In this document: piece after piece, positions 3 through 52,784 of the stretch | How positions within the stretch are numbered: position 1 is the first letter of the stretch | Layout of the letters: every line of letters starts with the position of its first letter | IMG/VR virus record: IMGVR_UViG_3300042891_000377 | Span: 32,001-96,000 of that record | Direction: 5' to 3' (one strand) | Length of the DNA stretch: 64,000 nt | Source: a virus | Position numbers and translations under genes: made by a program | Notes under the pieces: generated by a model | Told to the model about the DNA's origin: nothing | The model's database searches: none | Seen by the model: only the letters and a program-made list of their open reading frames with translations

Positions 3-143
3 ATTAAAGATGAAAGTGGATTAGCCAGTGTAAATCATATTATACTTGCTGGCAATGTTGACAATGATCTGGGTGGTGCTGTCCTAGCTATGGACAATGG
101 AGCCATCCATATGATATACCGTGATGGGTGGAGAATAATCTAA
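3..143 (+). CDS. 3' end of a hypothetical protein (partial, runs off window start)
   Basis: Open frame from 3 (IKDESGLASVNHIILAGNVDNDLGG...GWRII) ending TAA 141-143, overlapping the next ATG (TAATG). Confidence 0.6.
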   Translation: MKDESGLASVNHIILAGNVDNDLGGAVLAMDNGAIHMIYRDGWRII

Positions 144-1888
144 TGACATATTTGTTTTCGAGTAATGTAGAAGTAAGCAACGATATTGGCAATCCGTTGC
201 CTATTACAGTAACCAACACCAACGGTAACATAGTAAGTTTGGCAAATCCATTTCCAGTAACCTTGGGTAGCAATAGTATACAGATTATTGGTAATGTATC
301 AATACCAACTACAGTAAACGTAGCATCAAGTCCGGACGATCCGGTACATACACATATTACAGAAATTGGTACCAGTGGCAATCTATTAGCATTAGGCATT
401 AATTATATGCCCATCGGCGGTAACGTCGGCATAATAGGCAATGTAACTGTTCTACAAGGTACTAATCCGTGGACTGTGAATGGTAGTGTTGGAATTACCA
501 GCATTGGTAATATTGATATAGGTAATACTAGTTTGCCTGTCAGGATCCAAGGTAACGTAAATGTAAATCCAATTTCAGTTACAGGTATAACGTCAAACGT
601 AAACGTCAATCCACTTTCTGCCACAGTGTCGGGTAACATCGGTATACTAAACACCAATGGTAATATAGTAAGTAACACTAATCCATTCCCAGTAACTGGC
701 AATTTAACTGCTACTATAACCGGAACTAGTACAGTAACACTAGGCACAGGATCAACAGATGCCTTTGGCAGACTGCGTACTAGCCAACCGTACACATTGT
801 TTGACAGTAGAGCAAGATACTACGATCATAATGACTTCAGTAACGTTAATGTCACTGGCGGAACAGTAGTTTATGACACCAACAGTTCCACGTTTCGATT
901 GAATGTAACTGCCGCCAATGGTTCTAGCGTTATAAGAGAAACAAAACGAGTGTTTCCTTATCAACCAGGTAAGAGTCTGTTAGTGTTAGCAACTTTCTGT
1001 ATGAACACACCTAAAACTAATCTACGTCAGCGTGTGGGCTATTTTACTACCAATAACGGTGTATACTTTGAAAACGACGGAACCTACAACTATCTGGTAA
1101 TAAGAAGTTATAGTAGTGGTGCGTTGGTTGAGGATAGAGTAAGACAAGATGCATGGGACAATCCATTTGCCGCATTAAATGTAGACAGAACACAGATTTT
1201 TTGGATAGATGTAGAATGGTTAGGTGTAGGATCTGTTCGTTGCGGATTTGTTATTAATGGTGCTTACGTGCTGTGTCATACGTTTCATCATGCTAACATT
1301 ATAGGCAATACTACTACATATATGACTACTGCAACATTGCCTGTACGGTATGAGATAACAAATACAGCAGCCACTGCTGGCACGAGTATGATGCGTCAAA
1401 TCTGTTCTACAGTTATCAGTGAAGGAGGATACAATGCCTTTACCTACAGCGAAACCGCAGGACGAGGTACTTCAGTATTAAGATTAGCAACAGCAGGAAC
1501 ATATTATCCCGTAGTCAGTATTAGATTGGCTAGTACAAGATTAGATGCTATTGTGTTGCCGAGACAGGTTGATGTTCTTAGTCCCACTGTAAACTACTAT
1601 CGTTGGAAGTTGGTGCTAAATCCTACCCTAACTGGTGCTACCTGGGCCGGAACTAGTACTTCGGGAACTATCGAATACGACACAGCTGCTACTGCTATAT
1701 CAGGCGGCACGGAACTACAGGCTGGCTATGTCAGCAGTAGAGAATTATCAGAGTTAGGAGCAGATGCTTTTGCCTTCCAATTAGGCAGAACACTAGCAGG
1801 AGTTAGCGATATAGTCACACTGGCCATGGCAGCAACATCAAACAACGCAGACGTGCTAGCGCAAATAGGCTGGCAAGAGATTACATAA
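143..1888 (+). CDS. Probable virion structural protein with N-terminal NP(F/L)PVT-type repeats
   Basis: ATG143 is coupled to the upstream stop; Thr/Asn/Gly/Val-rich repeats then DAFGRLRTS-containing globular domain. Confidence 0.55.
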   Translation: MTYLFSSNVEVSNDIGNPLPITVTNTNGNIVSLANPFPVTLGSNSIQIIGNVSIPTTVNVASSPDDPVHTHITEIGTSGNLLALGINYMPIGGNVGIIGNVTVLQGTNPWTVNGSVGITSIGNIDIGNTSLPVRIQGNVNVNPISVTGITSNVNVNPLSATVSGNIGILNTNGNIVSNTNPFPVTGNLTATITGTSTVTLGTGSTDAFGRLRTSQPYTLFDSRARYYDHNDFSNVNVTGGTVVYDTNSSTFRLNVTAANGSSVIRETKRVFPYQPGKSLLVLATFCMNTPKTNLRQRVGYFTTNNGVYFENDGTYNYLVIRSYSSGALVEDRVRQDAWDNPFAALNVDRTQIFWIDVEWLGVGSVRCGFVINGAYVLCHTFHHANIIGNTTTYMTTATLPVRYEITNTAATAGTSMMRQICSTVISEGGYNAFTYSETAGRGTSVLRLATAGTYYPVVSIRLASTRLDAIVLPRQVDVLSPTVNYYRWKLVLNPTLTGATWAGTSTSGTIEYDTAATAISGGTELQAGYVSSRELSELGADAFAFQLGRTLAGVSDIVTLAMAATSNNADVLAQIGWQEIT

Positions 1889-5471: not shown

Positions 5472-7388
5472 ATGAGCAAAAATACAATCATAGGCATTGA
5501 CTTAGGCACCACTAATTCTTGTGTGGCCATTCTTGAAAATAACAAATCACGTGTAATTGAAAATAACGAAGGTGCTCGTACTACACCAAGTATCGTTGCT
5601 TATGGCGATGAAATTATTGTAGGTGCTAGTGCTAAACGTCAAGCAGTTACAAATCCAAAAAACACAATTTACGCCAGCAAACGACTTATTGGTCGCAAGT
5701 TTGACGAATCAGCAGTACAAAAAGACATTGACCTAATGCCCTACAAGATCGTTAAAAACGAAAATGGTGATGCTTGGGTAGAAGTAAATGGCAATAAATT
5801 AGCACCTCCACAAATTTCAGCAGAAGTATTGCGCAAAATGAAATTGACAGCAGAGGACTATTTAGGTTATGAAGTAACTCAAGCAGTTATTACAGTACCT
5901 GCTTATTTCAACGACAGCCAACGTCAAGCAACTAAAGATGCAGGCCGTATTGCAGGACTAGAAGTATTGCGTATTATCAATGAACCAACTGCGGCGGCAT
6001 TGGCATTTGGTTGTGATAAGGGCGATAAAAAAGACCGTAAGATTGCTGTGTACGACCTAGGTGGAGGTACATTTGATATTAGTATTATCGAAATCAGTGA
6101 TATCGACGGCGAAAAACAATTTGAAGTATTGTCAACTAACGGTGATACATTCCTTGGTGGTGAAGACTTTGACCAACGTGTAATGGAATACTTGGTTGAT
6201 GAGTTTAAGAAAGAGTCCGGCATTGACTTAAAACAAGATATGCTTGCTCTACAACGTCTTAAAGAATCAGCTGAAAAAGCTAAAATTGAATTGTCAAGTT
6301 CAACACAAACAGACGTAAACTTACCTTACATCACTGCTGATGCTACTGGTCCTAAACACTTGTCAGTTAAACTAACACGTGCTAAGTTTGAAAGTTTAGT
6401 TGAAGATTTAATTAAACGTTCAATTGACCCATGTAAAATTGCAGTTAAAGACTCTGGTATTGCAGTCGGCGACATCGATGATGTTATCCTAGTCGGCGGT
6501 CAAACACGTATGCCTAAAGTACAAGAAGCTGTTGAAGCATTCTTCGGTAAGGCTCCGCGTAAAGACGTTAACCCAGACGAAGCTGTGGCAGTTGGTGCGG
6601 CTATCCAGGGTGCAGTATTAGGTGGTGACAAAACTGATGTATTATTACTTGACGTAACTCCGCTATCATTGGGTATTGAAACAATGGGTGGTATTATGAC
6701 CAAGCTGATTAAGAAAAATACAACCATCCCAACTAAAGCAAGCCAAGTGTTCTCTACAGCAGAGGACAATCAACCAGCGGTTACTGTTATGGTAGCACAG
6801 GGTGAGCGTGAGTTTGTTAAGGACAATAAAGTACTTGGGCAGTTTAATTTGGAAGGTATTGAACCACAACGTCGTGGTCAGCCACAAATTGAAATTACTC
6901 TTGACATTGATGCTAATGGTATCTTAAAAGTAAGTGCTAAAGATAAAGCAACTGGCAAAGAAAACAAGATTACTATCAAAGCTAACTCAGGTCTAACTGA
7001 AGAAGAAATTGATGCAATGGTACGTGATGCAGAAGTTAATGCTGATGCGGATAAAAAATTGCGTGAATTAGTTGATGCACGTAATCAAGCTGAAGCACAG
7101 GTTCATGATGTTAAGAAAACTGTAGAAGAAGCCGGTGACTCGGTAACTGCTGAACAACATACTGCAATCAATGATGCTATTGCCGCTGTAGAAGAAGCCA
7201 TTAAAGGTGATGATGTAGAAGCAATTACTACAGCAATGACTAAACTAGCAGAACCAATGGCACCAATCTACCAAGCTAAACAAGCACACGAGTCAGCAAC
7301 AGTTGAACCTGGTCAGCAAACAGCAACAGATGCACAAGATGGTGTTGTAGATGCTGAATTCACAGAAGTTAACAAGGAGAGTAAATAA
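5472..7388 (+). CDS. dnaK: Chaperone DnaK (Hsp70)
   Basis: [37 protein letters not shown]. Confidence 0.98.
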
Positions 7389-17913: not shown

Positions 17914-18020
17914 TGTAACAAATTGTAAAAATATTGCTTGACAGGTGGCCGGTTATCATATACACTAGTAAACATATAGCAAATCACATTTGTAACAAGA
18001 TGTAACAAACTATATAAATA
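17914..18020 (+). promoter_or_regulatory. xoxF promoter region: sigma70-like promoter, late promoter and TGTAAC direct repeats
   Basis: TTGACA 17938 / TACACT 17961 (17-nt spacer); TATAAATA 18013-18020; TGTAA(C/A) at 17914, 17924, 17991, 18001. Confidence 0.55.
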
Positions 18021-18117: not shown

Positions 18118-19983
18118 ATGAAGTTAAAATCAATTAAAGTAGCATTAAGTTTAGTTTTAGCATTACCAGCAGTAGCTTTCGCAGCAGCTGACCAAGAAAA
18201 AGCAATGAAAGACGCTAACAACTGGGTTGGCCCACGTGGTCAATACGACAACCAAGGTTACAGTGCATTAGCACAAGTTAACAAAGGTAACGTTAAAGGC
18301 CTTAAAGCTGCTTGGACATTCGCTACCGGTGTAAACCGTGGCCACGAAGGTTCACCAGTAGTTGTTGGTAACATGATGTACGTTCACACAGCGTTCCCAA
18401 ACAACGTTTACGCTCTTGACTTAAACGACAATCAAAAAATCGTTTGGTCTTACTTCCCAAAACAAGATCCATCAGTACAAGCTGTATTGTGCTGCGATAA
18501 CGTTTCACGTGGTCTTGGTTACGGCGACGGTAAAATCTACCTACAACAAAACGATGGTAACTTGGTTGCTTTAGACGCTAAAACTGGTGCTAAAGTATGG
18601 TCAACTTTAATCAACGATCCAAAAGTCGGTGCTACTAACACTAATGCTCCACACGTGATCAAAGATAAAGTACTGACAGGTTGTTCAGGTGCTGAATTTG
18701 GTGTTCGTTGCTTTATCGCAGCTTACAACTTAAAAGACGGTTCATTAGCATGGAAAGCATACTCAACAGGCCCTGATGCTGAAATGTTAATCGGCGAAGG
18801 CTTCAACAAAGATACACCTGAGTACAGCGCACTATCAGTTTACCAAGACGTAAACGGTGGTAACAAATTAGGTGGTTCTTTCAACACTATCCCTAATGAC
18901 AAATTAGTAATTGGTCAAAAAGAGTTAGGCACACGTACATGGTTGAAACCACAAGCAGTTAAAGATGGTTGGCAACATGGTGGTGGCTCTGTATGGGGCT
19001 GGTGGCCGTATGATGCTCGTACAAACTTGGTTTACTACGGAACAGGTAACCCATCAGTTTGGAACCCAGATGTACGTCCAGGCGACAACAAATGGTCTAT
19101 GACTGTTTTCGCTCGTGACTTAGACACTGGCGTTGCAAAATGGGGTATGCAAATGACTCCACACGATGAGTGGGATTACGATGGTATTAACGAAGTAATC
19201 TTGTTCGACAAAGGTGGTAAAACATACGCATGGCACCATGACCGTAACGGTTTTGCTTACACTTGGAATGCTGGTAACGGTAAATTAGTTGCTGCAGAAA
19301 AAGTACACCCATTCGTTAACTGGGCAACTGGTGTTGATTTGAAAACAGGCGTGCCTAACAAATTGGCTACTGCTTCAACTCACCAAGATTACAATGCAAA
19401 AGGCGTTTGTCCAGCTGCTTTGGGTACTAAAGACCAACAACCAGCTGCGTACTCACCAAAAACTGGTTTAATTTACACTCCATTGAACCACGTATGTATG
19501 ACATACGAGCCAGTTGAGTCTAAATACGTTGCAGGTCAACCATGGGTTGGTGCTACATTGACCATGTTCCCAGGTCCAGACGGTGTAATGGGTGGTTTCG
19601 GTGCTTACGATCCAATGACAAACAAAAAAGTTTGGTACAACAAAGAGAAATTCTCTGCTTGGGGTGGTGCTTTAACAACTGCTTCAAACTTAGTATTCTT
19701 CGGTACTTTAGATCGTTGGTTTAAAGCTGTAGATGCATCATCAGGTAAAGAACTATGGAAATTCCAAGTTGGTTCTGGCGTGATTGGTAATGCATTCACA
19801 TACGGTCACAAAGGTAAACAACACGTTGGCGTGCTATCAGGTATCGGTGGCTGGGCTGGTGTGGCGATGAACCTTGGTATGACTAACCCAACAGACGCTT
19901 TAGGTGCTGCTGGTGGTTATGCTGAATTAACAAAATACAACGCGGCTCCTGGCGGCGGTGCATTAACAGTATTCAGTCTTTAA
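18118..19983 (+). CDS. xoxF: Lanthanide-dependent PQQ methanol dehydrogenase XoxF
   Basis: Signal peptide; vicinal disulfide LCCD; GAEFGVR; GNPS.W; TPHDEWDYDG with the extra Ln-ligand Asp (MxaF has DYAG); W-docking repeats. Confidence 0.93.
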   Translation: MKLKSIKVALSLVLALPAVAFAAADQEKAMKDANNWVGPRGQYDNQGYSALAQVNKGNVKGLKAAWTFATGVNRGHEGSPVVVGNMMYVHTAFPNNVYALDLNDNQKIVWSYFPKQDPSVQAVLCCDNVSRGLGYGDGKIYLQQNDGNLVALDAKTGAKVWSTLINDPKVGATNTNAPHVIKDKVLTGCSGAEFGVRCFIAAYNLKDGSLAWKAYSTGPDAEMLIGEGFNKDTPEYSALSVYQDVNGGNKLGGSFNTIPNDKLVIGQKELGTRTWLKPQAVKDGWQHGGGSVWGWWPYDARTNLVYYGTGNPSVWNPDVRPGDNKWSMTVFARDLDTGVAKWGMQMTPHDEWDYDGINEVILFDKGGKTYAWHHDRNGFAYTWNAGNGKLVAAEKVHPFVNWATGVDLKTGVPNKLATASTHQDYNAKGVCPAALGTKDQQPAAYSPKTGLIYTPLNHVCMTYEPVESKYVAGQPWVGATLTMFPGPDGVMGGFGAYDPMTNKKVWYNKEKFSAWGGALTTASNLVFFGTLDRWFKAVDASSGKELWKFQVGSGVIGNAFTYGHKGKQHVGVLSGIGGWAGVAMNLGMTNPTDALGAAGGYAELTKYNAAPGGGALTVFSL

Positions 19984-19997
19984 TCTGTAGTTAACCT

Positions 19998-20024: not shown

Positions 20025-20045
20025 ACCTCTGCAATAAATACTTTT

Positions 20046-20144
20046 ATGTATACTTGGCGCGAAACGTTTATCTTTATTGAAATCATTCTATTCTTCACAC
20101 TCGTGTTTTCTATCCCCTACATAGAACAACTAATCCAACCGTAA
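20046..20144 (+). CDS. Small hydrophobic peptide (32 aa, not in ORF track)
   Basis: MYTWRETFIFIEIILFFTLVFSIPYIEQLIQP; preceded by AATAAATA. Confidence 0.35.
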   Translation: MYTWRETFIFIEIILFFTLVFSIPYIEQLIQP

Positions 20145-20182
20145 CAAAAATTTAATCTGTTTGTAACACTACTGTAATCTTT
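20139..20182 (+). promoter_or_regulatory. Tandem Pho-box-like (PhoB) repeats
   Basis: 11-nt phased units CCGTAACAAAA/ATTTAATCTGT/TTGTAACACTA/CTGTAATCTTT upstream of phosphate genes. Confidence 0.65.
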
Positions 20183-20200
20183 GTGTGTTTAAATATACAT

Positions 20201-20950
20201 ATGACCACAAGATATAAGACCATTTGTATATCCGACTTTCACCTTGGCACTAAAGATGCTAAGGCTGATCTATTAAACAATTTCCTTAAAAATCACACCT
20301 GCGAAAATTTATTTTTAGTTGGTGATATTATTGACGGTTGGAAGATACAGCAGAACAAGTGGAAGTGGCATCAAAGCCATACTAATGTTATTCGTCGTAT
20401 ATTAGGTTATAGCAAGCGAGGTTGTAATGTAACCTATGTAACTGGCAATCATGACGAGTTTCTTCGCCCGTTGGTAAGTCATGGATTCAATCTCGGCAAT
20501 ATTCGTATGGTAAATCAAGCAGAATATCGCAGTATAGATGGCGAGTTGTTTCTAATTACCCACGGCGACTTATTTGACGGTATTACTAGATTAGCACCGT
20601 GGTTAGGATTTTTAGGTGATAAAGCATATGATGTAGCTTTATGGTTTAATAACTATTTTAACTTTGCTCGTAGAAAATTAGGATTTGGTTATTGGAGTTT
20701 AAGCAAGTTTTTAAAAGCTCGCGTTAAGAAAGCAATGGGTTTTGTATTTAAGTTTGAACTTAACATGTTACAGTATGCTCAAAAACAAGGGTATGATGGT
20801 GTTATCTGCGGACATATACACACACCCGAAATTAAACACATCAACGGCATGATTTATATGAACGACGGTGATTGGGTTGAAAGTTGTAGTGCCCTAGTAG
20901 AAGATTATGAAGGACGCTGGGATATTATATATTGGAATGAAATTAAATAG
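20201..20950 (+). CDS. Metallophosphoesterase, LpxH/PlcP-like (probable phospholipase C for lipid remodelling)
   Basis: ISDFHLG, LVGDIIDGW, GNHD, HGD, CGHIH, NDGDWVES. Confidence 0.8.
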   Translation: MTTRYKTICISDFHLGTKDAKADLLNNFLKNHTCENLFLVGDIIDGWKIQQNKWKWHQSHTNVIRRILGYSKRGCNVTYVTGNHDEFLRPLVSHGFNLGNIRMVNQAEYRSIDGELFLITHGDLFDGITRLAPWLGFLGDKAYDVALWFNNYFNFARRKLGFGYWSLSKFLKARVKKAMGFVFKFELNMLQYAQKQGYDGVICGHIHTPEIKHINGMIYMNDGDWVESCSALVEDYEGRWDIIYWNEIK

Positions 20951-20962
20951 GAGAGAATGTAA

Positions 20963-21964
20963 ATGACGATTCAACAGATTAAAACGATAATGTATTATGT
21001 AGTAATAGCATTTGCTGTATCAATGGCTGGATTAAAACAAGTTCAGGCAGCAGACAAAATGGTCAAAATAGACGGCAGTTCGACAGTCTATCCAATATCA
21101 GAAGCAGTAGCAGAAGAATTTCAAAAGAAAACAGGGGTTAAGGTAACAGTAGGTGAAAGTGGTACAGGTGGCGGCTTTAAAAAGTTCTGTCGCAGTGAAA
21201 CTGACATCAGCGATGCTAGTCGTCCTATTTCACAAAAAGAGATGGATGCTTGTAAAGAAGCAGGTGTACAGTACATCGAATTGCCCGTTGCCTACGATGC
21301 TCTAACTGTAGTAGTAAACAGCAAAAATGGCTGGGTTAAATCATTTACAGTTGAAGAATTGAAAAAAATATGGGCACCGGGTAGTTCAGTTAAAAACTGG
21401 AATCAAGTAAATCCAGCTTATCCAAATCAACCACTACAATTATTTGGCCCAGGTACAGCAAGTGGTACATTTGACTACTTCACCGAAGCTATCAATGGTA
21501 AGGCAAAATCCAGTCGCAGCGACTACACACCAAGTGAAGATGACAATGTTCTAGTAACTGGTGTAGCAGGTAATTCGGGGGCACTAGCTTACTTTGGTTA
21601 TGCTTATTACGAAGAAAACAAAGATAAATTACGTGCCATTCCTATCATTGCTAAGGGCTCAACAACGCCAGTATTACCAAGTCCAGAAGCAGTTATGAAT
21701 GGTACCTATCAACCATTAAGCCGCCCACTGTTTATCTATGTAAATGCAACAGCGGCTGCGTTTAGACCAGAAGTAAAAGCATTTGTAAATTTCTATTTAG
21801 AAAATGCACCTAAGTTAGTAAAAGAAGTAAAGTATGTTCCATTACCAGCAGACGACTATGCGGCAGTAACAGAGCATTTCAAAGCACTAAAACCAGGTAC
21901 AGGGTTTAACGGTACTCCAGAAGTAGGCATTAAAATTAAAGACTTAATTAAACGAATCAAATAA
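20963..21964 (+). CDS. pstS: Phosphate-binding protein PstS
   Basis: [44 protein letters not shown]. Confidence 0.93.
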
Positions 21965-21973
21965 GGAAACATT

Positions 21974-23383
21974 ATGACATTAAAAAATATTATCACAGGT
22001 TTATTCATAGCATCAGCATTAATTGCTACACCAGTATATGCAGACAGCACTAACGACATCGTGAATGCGTTGGTGATGAAAGGCGTGTTAACCGAAGAAG
22101 AAGGTGCCTTAATTAACAAAGGTCGTACTGGAGAAACAAGCGCAGTTAAAAAAGAAAAAGATACCACTGTACATGCGGCTAGCAAAATGAATATACGTGG
22201 CTACTTACAGATACGAAATACTACTATGCTCAGTGGTGACGAAGGAGTTAACCTTTGGTCAGATCGATCTGTAGGTGACAAAAATTCACTCGCTGACCAA
22301 GACAAAAACTTCCTAATTCGTCGTGCTCGTATTATTATATCAGGTTCGGCAGGTGATCGTTTAGATTACTATATTCAACCCGACTTTGCTAGTACAGCAG
22401 GTACCACAGGTAACGTTGCGCAACTACGTGATGCTTATGGTGACGTGAATCTAACCAAAGATAAAGTGCACCGTGTGCGTGTGGGTCAAAGTAAAGTACC
22501 ATATGGATTTGAAAACTTACAATCTTCACAAAATCGTTTAGCACTTGATCGTGCCGACGCATTTAACAGCGCAGTACGTGATGAGCGTGATTTAGGTGCG
22601 TTCTACTACTACACACCAGATAATGTACAAAAGTTGTTTAAAGAAATACAAGACAGTGGTTTAAAACATTCAGGTAACTACGGTATGTTTGGCGTTGGTA
22701 TATATAACGGCCAGGGTGCTAACCAACAAGATCGTAACGATAATTATCATACAGTAGCACGTTTTACTTACCCTTGGAAAACAGAAAGCGGACAAATATA
22801 CGAAGCTGGTATACAAGGTTATACAGGCAAGTATGTAAGAACAGGCAGTGCGTATAGAAGAAACATGGGCAACAACGTTTACGCAACTAAAACACCGACA
22901 TTAGAACCGGGCAACACAACTGGATTTAAAGACGAACGTATGGGTGTAAGTTTTATGATGTACCCACAACCGTTTGGTATACAAGGTGAGTGGAACTGGG
23001 GTAAAACTCCTGGCTTAGATACTGCTGCTAGTACTGATGGTATTATCAAAGAAACTAACTTGAACGGTGGTTACATTCAAACTATGTATAAAATTGATAA
23101 CTTTAAAGTATTAGATACCAATGGTACACTAATTCCATTTGTTAGATGGCAATACTTTGATGGTGCGTCAAAAGCAGAAACTAACTCACCAATGAACAAG
23201 GTTAACGATTGGGAGATGGGTGCTGAATGGCAAATCGCGCCAGAGGTTGAACTTGTGGCTTACTATCATATGATGAATCGTAGCAACCTAGTAACAGGAG
23301 CATCGGCTACTACACTAGTAAAGCAGGACTATGCTAACTTTAAAGCAGATGCCCTGCGTGTTCAACTACAGTATAACTTTTAG
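21974..23383 (+). CDS. Phosphate-selective porin (OprO/OprP family)
   Basis: Signal peptide; L..KGVLTEEE; FLIRRARI, LRDAY, GQSKVPYGFENLQSS; C-terminal YNF. Confidence 0.8.
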   Translation: MTLKNIITGLFIASALIATPVYADSTNDIVNALVMKGVLTEEEGALINKGRTGETSAVKKEKDTTVHAASKMNIRGYLQIRNTTMLSGDEGVNLWSDRSVGDKNSLADQDKNFLIRRARIIISGSAGDRLDYYIQPDFASTAGTTGNVAQLRDAYGDVNLTKDKVHRVRVGQSKVPYGFENLQSSQNRLALDRADAFNSAVRDERDLGAFYYYTPDNVQKLFKEIQDSGLKHSGNYGMFGVGIYNGQGANQQDRNDNYHTVARFTYPWKTESGQIYEAGIQGYTGKYVRTGSAYRRNMGNNVYATKTPTLEPGNTTGFKDERMGVSFMMYPQPFGIQGEWNWGKTPGLDTAASTDGIIKETNLNGGYIQTMYKIDNFKVLDTNGTLIPFVRWQYFDGASKAETNSPMNKVNDWEMGAEWQIAPEVELVAYYHMMNRSNLVTGASATTLVKQDYANFKADALRVQLQYNF

Positions 23384-23391
23384 GAAACATT

Positions 23392-23481
23392 ATGTTTGAA
23401 CTTTTTATAGATGCTGTAAAAGATATTAGCGGTATATTGGCGATAATGGCGGCTATTGGTATATGGTCATTTTTACTATAG
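23392..23481 (+). CDS. Small single-TM peptide (29 aa, not in ORF track)
   Basis: AGGA RBS; MFELFIDAVKDISGILAIMAAIGIWSFLL. Confidence 0.45.
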   Translation: MFELFIDAVKDISGILAIMAAIGIWSFLL

Positions 23482-23614
23482 ATTGCAAGAAAATTACTGG
23501 TCTTTAATGATTTTACGTATGTTATTTAGGTCAAAACGGTGTTACTATATGTATAAGTACTAGTAACAACAAAACATGTTGTGGTACTTTTAATAATTTA
23601 CTAGGAGAAATACT

Positions 23615-23686
23615 ATGTGGACTAAACCAGCAGCCACTGAAATGCGTTTCGGTTTTGAAGTAACTCTTTACGTAATGAACCGTTAA
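23615..23686 (+). CDS. pqqA: PQQ precursor peptide PqqA (not in ORF track)
   Basis: MWTKPAATEMRFGFEVTLYVMNR with conserved E-x-x-x-Y; AGGAG RBS. Confidence 0.95.
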   Translation: MWTKPAATEMRFGFEVTLYVMNR

Positions 23687-23709
23687 TTTTAAGGTCCATA
23701 ACGTAAACA

Positions 23710-23732
23710 AAGCCTCTTAGGAGGCTTTTTTA
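23710..23732 (+). terminator. Terminator after pqqA (overlaps the stop of the convergent HNH gene)
   Basis: AAAGCCTC-TTAG-GAGGCTTTTTT. Confidence 0.75.
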
Positions 23733-24181
23733 TTGGCCCGTGTTTCTGCCAAGGATGCTCTAATTTTTGCTCGTGTTTCTTCACTAACGACATGCCCTTT
23801 ACGACTTGCGGCCCAATTAGCCATATGTTCTTCAGACTTCTTTTTGCCCTTCATTGCTTCAGAACGTTTTTTATTGGCTTCTTCTAACTTACCACTTGCT
23901 CGTTGTCTTTCTGTTCTAAGTTTACAACTTTCTCTGAGTTTTGCTTTAGATTCCTCAGACATGGGTTTCTTGCTGCCTTTACTCCTTGCCATAAACATTG
24001 CCTCATCTTGTCCCATTTGCCCAGACAATGCTTGCCAAGCACAATAGTCTTGCCAATTGCCGTGTTGTTCGTACAGCAAGCGATGCGCTTCTGCGTGAGC
24101 TTCTACGGTAAGTTCTATTAGGTTACTAGGATCGTCGGTGCCGCCTAGGTATTGAGGTAAGATGTGATGTATATGTTTCAT
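23717..24181 (-). mobile_element. Free-standing HNH homing endonuclease with NUMOD3-like DNA-binding repeats
   Basis: HIHHILP..LGGTDDPSNL..LT...HAEAH; repeats SEESKAKL / SEETRAKI. Confidence 0.75.
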
Positions 24182-24212
24182 ACAGTTATTTATTATTGTT
24201 ACTTCATAACCT

Positions 24213-24262
24213 ATAAACAAAACTTATTGCGACCATTTAAAAATACAATTAAAAAAACCTAT
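24213..24262 (+). promoter_or_regulatory. Possible OxyR-type site upstream of ahpC
   Basis: ATAA-N7-TTAT-N7-ATTT-N7-CAAT plus ATTA-N7-CTAT; the region is very AT-rich. Confidence 0.4.
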
Positions 24263-24335
24263 TAATCAGGCTTTTTTTATTAAAAATTTTAATATATAAT
24301 ATATGTACATTAACAATTTAATCAAGGGGAAGTAA

Positions 24336-24902
24336 ATGAGTTTAATCGGAAAACAAGTAGAAGCATTTAAAGCACAAGCATACCGTCAAGGTCAGTTTGT
24401 AGAAGTATCAGAGCAAGATTTAAAAGGTCGTTGGAGTATAGTATTCTTTTACCCAGCAGACTTTACATTCGTCTGCCCAACAGAATTAGCAGACTTACAA
24501 GACGTATACGCTAGTGACTTTAAAGCAATGGGGGTAGAAGTATACAGCGTAAGCACAGACACACACTTTGTACACAAAGCATGGGCAGATGCTACAGACA
24601 CAATCCGTAACATCACCTACACAATGATTGGCGATGCTAACCATCAGTTAGCTCGACAATTTGGTGTGCTAATTGAAAGCGAAGGACTAGCTGATCGCGG
24701 TACGTTTGTTATTGATCCAGATGGTGTTGTACAGATCATTGAGATCAATCCAGGGGGTGTTGGCCGTGACGCAAAAGAACTATTGCGTAAAGTTAAAGCG
24801 GCAAAATACACTAGAGAGCATCCGGGTGAAGTATGCCCGGCTAAATGGCAAGAAGGAAGTGCTACCTTAGCACCAAGTTTGGATTTAGTAGGTAAACTAT
24901 AA
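24336..24902 (+). CDS. ahpC: Peroxiredoxin AhpC
   Basis: [21 protein letters not shown]. Confidence 0.95.
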
Positions 24903-43289: not shown

Positions 43290-43910
43290 ATGTCAACTTT
43301 AGTCCCAATGGTAGTAGAACGTACGAGTCAAGGCGAACGTAGCTATGACATTTATTCACGCTTACTTAAAGATCGTATCATCATGTTAGACACTGATGTC
43401 AACGAGCATACTGCTAGTTTAATCGTAGCGCAGATGTTGTTCTTAGAAAGTGAAGCACCAGAGAAAGATATCTTATTCTACATCAATAGTCCGGGTGGTA
43501 GTGTAACTGCTGGCTTGGCAATTTATGATACAATGCAGTTTATCAAATGTGATGTATCAACTATTGTACTTGGACAAGCATGTTCGATGGGTAGCTTCCT
43601 AGCGCAAGCAGGTGCACCAGGCAAGCGTATTGTTCTGCCAGAAGCACGTACTATGATTCACCGTGTTAGTTCCGGTACCCCCGGTACACGTGGTAGTGTA
43701 CACGTACAAGACCTACAGTTTGAAGATGCTAAACGTAGCTTTGAAGAAAGTGTGCGTATTAACAAACGCTTAACAGAACTGTATGCACGTCATAATACTG
43801 CTGGTAAAACGTATGACGAACTTTATGAAGCAATGAAGTTTGACACATTTTTAAGTGCAGACGAAGCTGTTGCCTATGGTCTAGCAGACGAAGTGATTAC
43901 TAAACGTTAA
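43290..43910 (+). CDS. clpP: ClpP protease proteolytic subunit
   Basis: [37 protein letters not shown]. Confidence 0.95.
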
Positions 43911-44980
43911 TGACCAAATTATGCCTTGACTTTATCACCGAATCAACACAGCCATTATTTACTGTTTTAATTGATGGCTGTGTAGTATCGGCAGTAGTAA
44001 ACGATAAAGAATTAACTATATCAGCCGATTTACAATACGGATTCCATACACTGGCTATTTCAGTAACCAATCCATCGTCACCTATTGTATTCACTGATGC
44101 AAAATTAGATGGAGTTAGTTTCCGACAAACGTTATATACAATGTTTGCTAATAAGCAATGCAAAAGACAAACAACAACTTTAACAATCACTGATAATATA
44201 TTATATCTTCCATTTATTAATCCGATAGCGGTATGGATTGCATCCTGCGCAGAAAAAATTCCTGCAAAATTATATGCGCATAGTTTGTATGATGAATTTG
44301 AAATTTATTATCCCGAATCTATAGTTATTCCTACTAGTTTTCCAAAAATACTACAAGATTATATGTTGTGTAATACAGACTTTTATATGCATGCTAAATC
44401 ATTATTATTAGATCCGTATTATAACGCAGAAGTACCGTATGCAAAACTTAGTAAATTAACATATGATGATACTGCATTGTATACTGAATTATTTGCAAAT
44501 TTAGAATTCTTTAAGAATAATGCACGTACACCAGCGCAGAGCAAATATAACAAATTAGAAACAAGTAAATCTGACTGGAGAGTGTTTGATTTTATTCTTG
44601 AAAAAAACATATTGCCCGAGGCACAGTTTCCTGCCCTCTATAAGTTATTGCATGATCTTAATTTAGATGAAATATTACATGGATTTATAGGTATACTTGG
44701 CCCAGGTGAATACATAACCCCGCACGTTGATCGTTACGAGGGTATGGAATTTATAATAGAAAAATATGGTGGTTGTGGACAGCTATATATTCCTGTGAAC
44801 TTTAAAGAAGGCAACTATTTTAAATTTAATAATATTGGATTAGTTCCGTTAGATGGTCCAATGTTAATTAATACTCAACATTTTGCTCATGCATTAATAA
44901 ACAATAGTAATGAATATCGATTTGCAATAGGTATACACGGATCTCGACTACATATTACAAATAAAGATGATAATGGCTAA
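43910..44980 (+). CDS. Protein with C-terminal Asp/Asn beta-hydroxylase-like cupin domain
   Basis: LGPGEYITPHVD...H.LINNS..YR. Confidence 0.55.
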   Translation: MTKLCLDFITESTQPLFTVLIDGCVVSAVVNDKELTISADLQYGFHTLAISVTNPSSPIVFTDAKLDGVSFRQTLYTMFANKQCKRQTTTLTITDNILYLPFINPIAVWIASCAEKIPAKLYAHSLYDEFEIYYPESIVIPTSFPKILQDYMLCNTDFYMHAKSLLLDPYYNAEVPYAKLSKLTYDDTALYTELFANLEFFKNNARTPAQSKYNKLETSKSDWRVFDFILEKNILPEAQFPALYKLLHDLNLDEILHGFIGILGPGEYITPHVDRYEGMEFIIEKYGGCGQLYIPVNFKEGNYFKFNNIGLVPLDGPMLINTQHFAHALINNSNEYRFAIGIHGSRLHITNKDDNG

Positions 44981-46280
44981 CTCTAACGTATTCTGTAATA
45001 CACCTTGGTATGAGGCTCACATCTATTGGGATGGCAGCTTTGGTACCTGTTGTCAAGAGAGTAGGAAATTATACGCAGAATCTGAAACACAATACAACAT
45101 TAAAACAATGTCTTTAGCAGAATGGTTTAATAGCAGACCTGCTAGAGAATTTCGTATGGATATGTTTAGCAACGAAGGCACTGTTACGTGTAGTCAATGT
45201 TATAACGAGCAAGGGGTAAGTGGTACAAGTCGTAGACATCGCAGTAATCAAAAAAGTGTAATTTTTACAAAGCAGGCATTTGGTGAAAGTTTCAAACAAA
45301 GTCCAGGTTATAAACAGTTCATGTTTAGTAAAGGTATGGATGGTATGACTAACACTATGCCAATTGATCTACATATTGATTTAGGTAACTATTGCAACTT
45401 AGCTTGTAAGATGTGCTGGTCTGGTGCAAGCAGTAAAATTGCAACTCAATATGTCAAGTGGGGGAATGAAGAACATAAACAATATCTTGGTAGTGATTGG
45501 ACTAAAGATACAGAAACGTGGAATAGATTCTTAAATGAATTACTAACCATTCCTAAACTAAAAAATATACATTTAATGGGCGGTGAAACTTTACTAACAG
45601 GTCAATTTGAAGAATTAATTGACTTTATGACTGCACATAATAGATTTGATGTATGCTTTAGTTTTGTCACTAACGGAACAAAGTTTAATGAATCACTAAT
45701 TAACAAACTAAAAAAATTTGCACGAGTAGGCATCGAAGTAAGTATAGAAACTGTAACTGCGCATAATGATTATGTTAGGCAAGGTACTAATACAGCAATA
45801 GTATTAGAAAATATACAAAAATATATACAGCACTGTACTGATACGTCAGTGTCGGTCACTATACGTCCTGCTATAAGCGCATTAACAGTTGGTTATTATT
45901 ATACGTTATTAGAATATTGTTTAGAACATAAGTTGATGATTAAAAGTTTGCTCGTAACAACTCCAAAATATTTAGACATTAAGGTGTTGCCGTATGCAAT
46001 TAAACAAAACTATCTGCAACACTATACAACTATAGTAGATCAGCTAGCGGACATTGATATTGATATTGATTTTAACGAGAGTGATGCAGGTAATTATAAA
46101 AAATCTATTAAACAACAGGCTATGCAAATGATCAATATACTTACACCTGTATTGATAGATAACGAAGATGGCTTACCAGAATTAGTTACTATGTGCAAAA
46201 AATGGGATACTGAATATAAATTCGATGCAATTACATTATATCCAGAATTAACCAAGGTGTTTGATCAGTATGGATACTAA
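44973..46280 (+). CDS. Radical SAM protein with N-terminal twitch/SPASM-like Cys cluster
   Basis: FCNTPW..CC..C..C; CNLACKMC; MGGE; TNGT. Confidence 0.82.
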   Translation: MANSNVFCNTPWYEAHIYWDGSFGTCCQESRKLYAESETQYNIKTMSLAEWFNSRPAREFRMDMFSNEGTVTCSQCYNEQGVSGTSRRHRSNQKSVIFTKQAFGESFKQSPGYKQFMFSKGMDGMTNTMPIDLHIDLGNYCNLACKMCWSGASSKIATQYVKWGNEEHKQYLGSDWTKDTETWNRFLNELLTIPKLKNIHLMGGETLLTGQFEELIDFMTAHNRFDVCFSFVTNGTKFNESLINKLKKFARVGIEVSIETVTAHNDYVRQGTNTAIVLENIQKYIQHCTDTSVSVTIRPAISALTVGYYYTLLEYCLEHKLMIKSLLVTTPKYLDIKVLPYAIKQNYLQHYTTIVDQLADIDIDIDFNESDAGNYKKSIKQQAMQMINILTPVLIDNEDGLPELVTMCKKWDTEYKFDAITLYPELTKVFDQYGY

Positions 46281-48369: not shown

Positions 48370-48612
48370 ATGAAAGTAAGCGTTTTATTAACAGCAGTAT
48401 TATTAGCAGTTGCAAGCATTGCATCAGCTGAAGAAGTTAAACAGAACACTAACACTCAACATCAACTATCAAAACGTCCTTATGCAGCGCCTGCTGTAGA
48501 TAAGGAAACATTTGATGGCGCGGTTGTTGATAAAAAAGAAGTAGAGAAACCTACACATTTAAATTTACACATGTTGGGTAAGCGTCCGTTTATGGAAAAA
48601 GCGACTGACTAA
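48370..48612 (+). CDS. Small secreted protein with duplicated HxLxKRP(Y/F) motif
   Basis: GAGGAG RBS; signal peptide; HQLSKRPY and HMLGKRPF. Confidence 0.7.
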   Translation: MKVSVLLTAVLLAVASIASAEEVKQNTNTQHQLSKRPYAAPAVDKETFDGAVVDKKEVEKPTHLNLHMLGKRPFMEKATD

Positions 48613-48619
48613 AGAAATT

Positions 48620-48965
48620 GTTGTAGCCGTAAGGCAAAGTTGTAAAGTAAGGCATGTTGGACGGCGGTTCGATTCCGCCCAGGTCCACCAAAAGTATATT
48701 GTCACTAAGGTCCCGTAAGGATTATGTCTTTGGCGAGATAGTATGCTTCTGATGGGCCTGACCAGGTTTCGACAGCGTGAGATAGGATAACAACTCAACA
48801 CGTGGGGTCACGTAAAATACAAATCTTGTAAATGCAAAAACATCTACAACTGGTGCTGTAAAAGTATCTATGGGTCGTGGCTTCCGCTTCGGTTCTGCTA
48901 CTCGTACAGCAACGTTTGCCTAAGAAACAAACACCACGGGGTAACTATACCTTGTAATCAAAAAT
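48620..48965 (+). ncRNA. ssrA: Circularly permuted (two-piece) tmRNA
   Basis: T-arm GGCGGTTCGATTCCGCC plus CAGGTCCACCA (ends 48690) precedes GGGCCTGA..GGTTTCGAC (starts 48754); acceptor stem has G3-U70; tag frame 48834-48923; outer ends approximate. Confidence 0.88.

Positions 48966-50875: not shown

Positions 50876-52784
<1,909 letters not shown>

Follow-up and report, generated by a model that had tools for sequence, protein, structure and literature searches.

The window, by which we mean the whole stretch of 64,000 nucleotides analysed here, corresponds to bases 32001–96000 of a linear IMG/VR record, 104,171 bases long and about 19% complete by the CheckV estimate. It contains an open reading frame of 23 codons, beginning with ATG and closed by TAA, that encodes the peptide MWTKPAATEMRFGFEVTLYVMNR (Table 1). 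The first-pass annotation had taken this frame for a pqqA gene and proposed a search with a PqqA HMM. In profile searches both curated models matched the peptide well above their cut-offs, PF08042 with 39.6 bits (cut-off 21.1) over 19 of 19 model positions and TIGR02107 with 38.4 bits (cut-off 20) over 21 of 21, and this was the one PqqA match in the 104-kb record. The cross-link pair of the ExxxY motif is Glu16 and Tyr20, read E16-V-T-L-Y20. The AGGAG claimed as ribosome-binding site is likewise present, and a Shine–Dalgarno-like site precedes pqqA in 87 of the 91 phage copies among the matches listed. Judged from the profile matches and from the pattern of substitutions described below, the frame is a genuine pqqA that is under selection.

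Downstream of the stop codon, at a distance of 22 nt, an 8-bp stem with four G-C pairs is followed by a T-run. Its predicted fold (−13.3 kcal/mol) is significant in a shuffling test (z = −2.98; 1 of 200 shuffles equal), and its position is retained in the contig L004, the nearest relative of the window, in which both arms carry changes. The earlier description of this hairpin as pqqA's own terminator holds as far as its significance is concerned, but it is a bidirectional hairpin that serves the convergent HNH-like ORF as well. The claim of a stand-alone transcription unit was similarly borne out in part. A terminator, an upstream element and a −10-like TATAAG are all present, but no + strand terminator was predicted between the late promoter of xoxF at 18013 and position 23709, so that read-through into pqqA from xoxF and the Pho genes is possible. 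A long late transcript may thus also have pqqA as its final cistron.

Table 1. Features of the pqqA locus and other genes discussed in the text (positions in the window)
Feature	Position	Strand	Remarks
Virion structural protein	128-1888		phrog_1645, 373 bits
DnaK homologue	5472-7388		
xoxF-like PQQ-dependent dehydrogenase	18118-19983	+	PF01011; late promoter motif at 18013
Pho-type operon	20027-23481	+	metallophosphoesterase, PstS-like protein, phosphate porin O/P, 29-aa hydrophobic ORF
Near-invariant block common with L004	23482-23527	+	contains the 23505-23519 element
Host-type pqqA upstream element	23505-23519	not assigned	TAATGATTTTACGTA, exact reverse complement of TACGTAAAATCATTA
Inverted repeat	23541-23567	+	GTTACTA 23541-23547 / TAGTAAC 23561-23567
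Late-promoter-like sequence	23552-23559		TATAAGTA, in the loop of the inverted repeat
Shine-Dalgarno AGGAG	23603-23607	+	7 nt 5' of pqqA ATG
pqqA	23615-23686	+	23 codons plus TAA
Intrinsic terminator hairpin	23709-23728	both strands	AAAGCCTC-TTAG-GAGGCTTT, then T-run
Convergent HNH-like ORF	23717-24220	-	candidate free-standing homing endonuclease
ClpP	43290-43910		
Asp/Asn beta-hydroxylase-like protein	43910-44980		
Radical-SAM protein	44967-46280		N-terminal SPASM domain
Permuted (two-piece) tmRNA	48604-48896		betaproteobacterial type
Cpn60 homologue	51147-52784		
Tail-fibre cluster	52.8-60.6 kb		

The window is a real fragment of a large T4-like freshwater myophage. Its virion structural protein is about 45% identical to the counterpart in T4-like cyanomyophages, and pqqA lies between the gene for this protein and the tail-fibre genes. 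The T4-type late promoter motif TATAAATA occurs 10 times in the record, with 8 of the 10 copies in the 8.5% that is non-coding, and exact copies stand 34 nt 5' of the porin gene and 105 nt 5' of xoxF. Comparison with 80 host xoxF loci including 10-kb flanks gave nucleotide similarity limited to 18172–19984, the mature xoxF; contamination with host DNA was rejected on this ground. Phage structural genes, late promoters and the confinement of host similarity to xoxF together indicate that pqqA is embedded in the phage genome, with viral genes flanking it and no host junction. Contigs of another lake metagenome span 23500–24322 without any difference. Many neighbours are cellular-looking (a porin, the PQQ dehydrogenase, metallophosphoesterase, PstS, phosphate porin O/P, AhpC, a CHASE2 cyclase and a DD-carboxypeptidase).

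The neighbours of pqqA

The XoxF-like dehydrogenase encoded upstream is the probable user of PQQ. Its mature portion has 98.4% nucleotide identity to the xoxF genes of the Methylophilaceae isolates RH-M32 and MMSCM63 and only about 80% to those of related phages, whereas the signal-peptide codons, the promoter region and both flanks are phage-specific and unrelated to the host loci. From this pattern, it looks like a very recent gene conversion of the phage gene by a host gene. The match also points to the host lineage, which is likely to be Methylophilaceae close to the two isolates.

A Pho-type operon separates xoxF from pqqA in the window. In L004 this operon is absent and pqqA follows about 200 nt after xoxF, indicating that the segment is an insertion in the window's lineage. 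A variant that lacks it, with a joint from 20026 to 23482, co-occurs in a lake metagenome (run X2). Another joint, from 23242 to 18168 with six nucleotides (CATCGG) in between, was seen at low depth in two lake metagenomes; no repeat that would explain it was found, and it may represent a rearranged relative or a mis-join in the assembly graph.

The convergent ORF that adjoins pqqA on its 3' side scored just under the cut-offs of the HNH (19.3 versus 21.4 bits) and NUMOD3 (19.0 versus 20.4 bits) models. Homologues lie 3' of pqqA in L004 (1677–2177, 75%) and in L188 (1663–2163, 53%), so that the association is seen in three phage contigs and in two orientations. Variants in lake metagenomes skip the ORF, with a joint from 23655 to 24324. 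All three HNH-linked pqqA alleles carry unusual residues, Leu or Ala at position 18 and Arg at position 23. On these grounds the ORF may be a free-standing homing endonuclease aimed at the pqqA flank.

The region upstream of pqqA

The first-pass annotation had noted an inverted repeat upstream of pqqA. The repeat exists, but its predicted fold is within the range expected by chance (z = −1.15; 23 of 200 shuffles as good). In L004 the right half is retained and the left arm carries changes that are not compensated, and we rejected the repeat as a regulatory hairpin. The sequence in its loop, TATAAGTA, matches the T4-type late promoter at 7 of 8 positions and contains the −10-like TATAAG mentioned above; an exact TATAAATA was not found at about −10 of pqqA. 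The string ATAAGTA also stands 5' of pqqA in the related contigs L003, L004, L006 and L007.

Further upstream, 110 nt 5' of the ATG, lies a quasi-palindrome whose 15-mer core is found about 100–130 nt 5' of most host pqqA copies; it is the sole exact match within the window. Using a symmetric 15-nt position weight matrix that was trained on host sites only and scanned on both strands, we obtained a score of 19.7 bits for this site, which equals the host median. A one-orientation 18-nt matrix, which missed the window site, was discarded. Among the matches listed, 79% of 87 phage pqqA upstream regions scored above the 95th percentile of control DNA from the same loci, with medians of 14.4 bits for the upstream regions and 2.9 bits for the control DNA. 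In five host genomes the pattern gave 33 matches, of which 19 lie 5' of pqqA, as compared with 2 matches for the backwards control. As judged from these scores, phage pqqA cassettes retain a host-type cis element, and the site in the window is a candidate operator or promoter element. It lies in a block that is almost identical to L004 and starts exactly at the end of the Pho-operon insertion. Over the entire match (23482–24902) identity to L004 is 84%, and the region of the element is the best-conserved part of the pqqA unit.

About 14 copies of the quasi-palindrome in the five host genomes lie away from pqqA (for example G001:C1:187445, G003:C1:240451 and G003:C3:57067). By eye, the ORFs that follow such sites look like those for SAH hydrolase, 6-phosphogluconate dehydrogenase and a TonB-dependent receptor, and the sites may form a small regulon. 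A different leader precedes pqqA in xoxF-linked relatives and in one host copy and is absent from the pqqA of the window (L003:17805–17898, L006:8296–8397, L007:4590–4687, L009:3934–4034 and, on the − strand, L090:1758–1860). It contains a 6-bp stem (TTGGA...TCCAA) with three compensatory pairs among the five sequences. No Rfam family matched this leader, and its stem is a candidate cis-regulatory hairpin.

Two freshwater metatranscriptome runs contain 8–9% of the sampled words, and their contigs cover xoxF and the porin gene heavily. At least for xoxF, whose host version is 98% identical, this cover would be accounted for by host mRNA. The pqqA bin reached a depth of 1.76 in one of the two runs and 0 in the second, and contigs of this kind show neither starts nor levels.

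pqqA in other phages and in the hosts

The co-occurrence of pqqA and xoxF across phage contigs, a check that the first-pass annotation had suggested, proved to be real. Among viral loci related through XoxF, 6 of 8 carry pqqA, just before or just after xoxF. The two genes lie within 10 kb of each other in 7 of 9 xoxF-bearing phage contigs and in merely 2 of 80 host xoxF loci, which makes the linkage phage-specific. The gene is nevertheless far from confined to phages with xoxF. A degenerate pattern for the peptide core matched at least 120 stretches in IMG/VR, of which 80 loci were examined; among these matches pqqA was intact in 80 of 80, and neither xoxF nor pqqB–E was found in the fetched flanks. 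The largest ORFs of these loci are of kinds typical for phages, encoding terminase, major head protein, DNA polymerase, primase/helicase, RecE and Erf.

Among the matches listed, 91 phage loci contain 85 distinct nucleotide versions that encode 30 peptides. W2, P5 and Y19 are invariant across the 85 versions and N22 is nearly so, all four positions having been left unconstrained by the search pattern. The Tyr of ExxxY, also unconstrained, is invariant, as is the Glu, which the pattern had fixed. In phage copies pS was well above pN, and the start codon, ribosome-binding site and stop codon were intact in all copies. From these comparisons it is clear that phage pqqA is under strong purifying selection, and the gene has thus been retained under selection across related viruses.

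In addition, pqqA is present, mostly unannotated, in every cultured Methylophilales phage of the collection. The GenBank phages concerned are Venkman, P19250A, MEP301, MEP401/402 and four Melnitz isolates; in their entries the gene is either unannotated or hidden beneath a spurious ORF on the opposite strand. The copies are intact, have 23–24 codons and a ribosome-binding site and occupy gaps between annotated genes, and most have the host-type upstream element, as in the window. These phages are smaller (35–142 kb), infect marine OM43 or freshwater LD28 hosts and, unlike the window, have no xoxF annotated in the 2.7–6 kb stretches around pqqA. In Melnitz (MZ577095.1; L239:2961–3056) a hypothetical protein is annotated on the strand opposite pqqA, and the true gene, on the + strand just before tRNA-Leu, is left unannotated. 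The paper on Melnitz refers to PQQ solely as a supplement of the medium.

In the chromosomes of the Methylophilaceae themselves, a single pqqBCDE is accompanied by 3–12 copies of pqqA per genome (Beck et al., 2014; PMC4109929). The five Methylophilaceae genomes that we inspected agree with this, each having one pqqC and 3–9 pqqA copies, with one pqqA beside pqqB–C and the others dispersed. One pqqC together with many pqqA copies is the pattern expected if the supply of precursor, rather than that of enzyme, is amplified. The layout of the host orphans (AGGAG, 23 codons, about 25 nt, then a hairpin and T-run) is like that of the phage unit, indicating that the arrangement with its own ribosome-binding site and terminator is a native host cassette and no invention of the phage. 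The window pqqA has no genomic association with pqqBCDE in the 104-kb record; since most host copies are orphans too, this does not bar it from membership of the PqqA family.

Compared with the common host peptide, that of the window has two changes, M18L and K23R, and its gene shares 78–89% of its nucleotides with the host copies sampled. In most phage pqqA genes among the matches listed, the peptide is identical to that of host copies. In comparison with the orphans of PMC4109929, therefore, the window copy shares the layout and the quasi-palindrome at about −110, and differs in its location in a phage genome, its Leu18 and Arg23, its proximity to xoxF, which is rare in hosts, and the late-promoter-like TATAAGTA upstream.

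Proposed precursor supply to the host and its alternatives

The central proposal of the first-pass annotation was that the phage carries the precursor gene alone and relies on PqqB–E of the host, and our results support it. The window comes from a real phage. Its record holds a single pqqA, and searches of the 104 kb with models for pqqB, pqqC, pqqD and pqqE gave no matches; neither did a search for pqqC in five related viral records, themselves fragments. Since all of these viral records are fragments, the absence of pqqB–E is provisional and the genes could lie elsewhere in the genomes. The single pqqC and multiple pqqA copies of the hosts fit the same reading, as does the purifying selection on the phage copies. 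Taking the sequence evidence together, we think it probable that the phage pqqA is a functional copy, captured from a Methylophilaceae host, which supplies a consumable precursor to host PqqB–E.

According to this model, the gene would have been captured as a complete orphan cassette comprising the upstream element, ribosome-binding site, 23 codons and terminator. During infection the PqqA peptide would be made in the host cytoplasm, host PqqD and PqqE would cross-link Glu16 to Tyr20 of the phage peptide, and host peptidases, PqqB and PqqC would complete PQQ. After export, the cofactor would be inserted into PQQ dehydrogenases of the periplasm, among them the XoxF-type enzyme that the phage encodes 3.6 kb upstream, and PQQ would in this way be sustained for the dehydrogenases of both host and phage. 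One peptide is consumed for each PQQ molecule while the pathway enzymes turn over, so that the precursor gene would be the single component of the pathway that it pays a phage to carry. That the hosts themselves amplify pqqA alone fits this argument. We infer from these considerations that the gene is expressed, that its product is converted to PQQ and that the phage benefits, as well as the earlier suggestion that the precursor is stoichiometrically limiting. Some points count against the model. The metatranscriptome cover of pqqA is marginal (depth 1.76, in a single run), PQQ can be reused, so that the pay-off of extra synthesis within one infection is not obvious, and with Leu18 in place of the host Met18 the peptide may or may not be accepted by host PqqE and PqqD. 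Moreover, any benefit has to be independent of a dehydrogenase encoded by the phage, since the flanks fetched for most pqqA phage contigs contain no xoxF.

It seems improbable that pqqA is a neutral passenger, picked up from the host or dragged along by a homing endonuclease or by xoxF without any benefit. Such an origin would suit the very recent exchange of the adjacent xoxF with a host (98.4% nucleotide identity), the HNH-like ORF that adjoins pqqA here and in L004 and L188 and is polymorphic in metagenomes, and the nature of the region as an island with insertions such as the Pho operon. It is hard to reconcile with a gene that is intact in 91 of 91 phage loci among the matches listed, in unrelated phage types and under strong purifying selection, and that occurs in every cultured Methylophilales phage of the collection. 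The 78–89% identity to host copies further argues that the window pqqA is no fresh capture.

We hold it to be rather improbable that the locus acts as DNA or RNA, by titrating a host factor at the upstream element, as a target for recombination or homing, or as a small RNA. The retention of a 15-nt host-type element 5' of 79% of the phage copies, its standing as the best-conserved part of the unit relative to L004, the presence of an HNH gene at the pqqA 3' flank in two orientations and the leader hairpin with compensatory changes in a subset of relatives would all accord with such a role. In the coding sequence, however, synonymous changes are many and amino-acid changes few, and no copy has lost its start, ribosome-binding site or stop. 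Conservation that follows the codons argues against the passenger as well as the DNA- or RNA-level role, because a purely DNA- or RNA-level role needs none.

Distinctly improbable, too, is another function of the peptide, either as a decoy on host PqqD and PqqE that throttles PQQ synthesis or as a substrate of the radical-SAM/SPASM protein. Leu or Ala at position 18 and Arg at position 23, in or beside the motif of the HNH-linked copies, are unusual, and the radical-SAM/SPASM protein adjoins an Asp/Asn-hydroxylase-like protein in the record. Most phage copies nevertheless encode a peptide identical to that of the host, and the radical-SAM gene is 21 kb from pqqA and has no match to the PqqE model. 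Lowering PQQ would also be self-defeating for a phage that carries a PQQ-dependent dehydrogenase. Finally, we regard as extremely improbable an artefact in which a host chromosome or chimeric assembly was mislabelled as viral and pqqA is a bacterial orphan copy: the many cellular-looking neighbours (porins, PstS, AhpC, CHASE2 cyclase and DD-carboxypeptidase), the CheckV completeness of merely 19% and the 98% identity of xoxF to the host gene are outweighed by host similarity whose limits coincide exactly with those of mature xoxF, phage structural genes on either side of pqqA, T4-type late promoters before the porin gene and xoxF, an arrangement common to related viral contigs at 75–85% identity, and metagenome contigs that bridge the pqqA region.

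A more elaborate scheme might be envisaged, although we offer it tentatively and consider it on balance doubtful. Phage pqqA cassettes would be more than bare coding morons: the operator-like element (in 79% of copies) would keep phage pqqA wired to the PQQ-demand circuit of the host. In the lineage of the window, pqqA, xoxF and cytochrome c would form a portable methanol-oxidation kit, and homing of the free-standing HNH endonuclease to the pqqA 3' flank would spread this kit between co-infecting phages.

The logic resembles that of cyanophage psbA, an auxiliary gene through which the phage replaces a fast-turnover host component: in both cases the phage carries the part that is consumed or turned over and the host supplies the rest. 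The present product differs from a protein subunit in being a 23-residue RiPP precursor consumed stoichiometrically, and the case of the window is known from sequence. Among the main consumers of methanol in lakes and coastal seas are the Methylophilaceae (OM43, LD28 and relatives), whose methanol dehydrogenases need PQQ. Carriage of the precursor alone would be a very economical form of metabolic reprogramming, and a RiPP precursor is a rare case of an auxiliary gene. Because pqqA escapes ordinary gene callers it is under-counted in viromes, and because cultured phage–host pairs exist, with Venkman or Melnitz on strain H5P1 and P19250A on IMCC19250, the idea of precursor supply can be tested directly. 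The medium published for isolation included PQQ at 1 nM.

Viral pqqA was already published in 2020 and is common, so that the window serves as a good illustration of something already known. T4-like Methylophilaceae phages with methanol dehydrogenase were described from Lake Baikal; in the population VP_266 PqqA was reported as well, and the proposed role was to boost methanol oxidation (Coutinho et al., 2020, Microbiome 8:163; PMC7678222). The Baikal phages VP_266 and VP_139 and the window phage are alike in being T4-like, freshwater and of low GC, with predicted Methylophilaceae hosts and with methanol dehydrogenase and PqqA. In contrast to the Baikal phages, the window has a Pho operon between xoxF and pqqA and an HNH-like gene adjoining pqqA. 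Identity of the record with VP_266 was considered on the basis of peptide deformylase and rejected; no such gene was found in the record, which thus cannot be equated with VP_266. What the window adds is the phage-specific linkage of pqqA and xoxF, the host-type element kept upstream, the HNH-like gene alongside and signs that xoxF was very recently exchanged with a host lineage that can be identified.

Viral radical-SAM proteins were linked to PQQ synthesis in the Baikal study (PMC7678222). In the window, by contrast, the radical-SAM protein with its N-terminal SPASM domain was rejected as a phage PqqE, since TIGR02109 gave no match. Its gene ends a row of three (43290–46280), after those for ClpP and the Asp/Asn beta-hydroxylase-like protein and upstream of a tmRNA gene; from their predicted products, the hydroxylase-like and radical-SAM genes may constitute a peptide-modifying pair. 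The tmRNA lies between the ClpP region and the gene for the Cpn60 homologue. The protein assigned to phrog_22485, which had been considered as a phage hallmark, turned out to be DnaK, and tmRNA, ClpP, Cpn60 and DnaK make up a proteostasis gene set of the phage.
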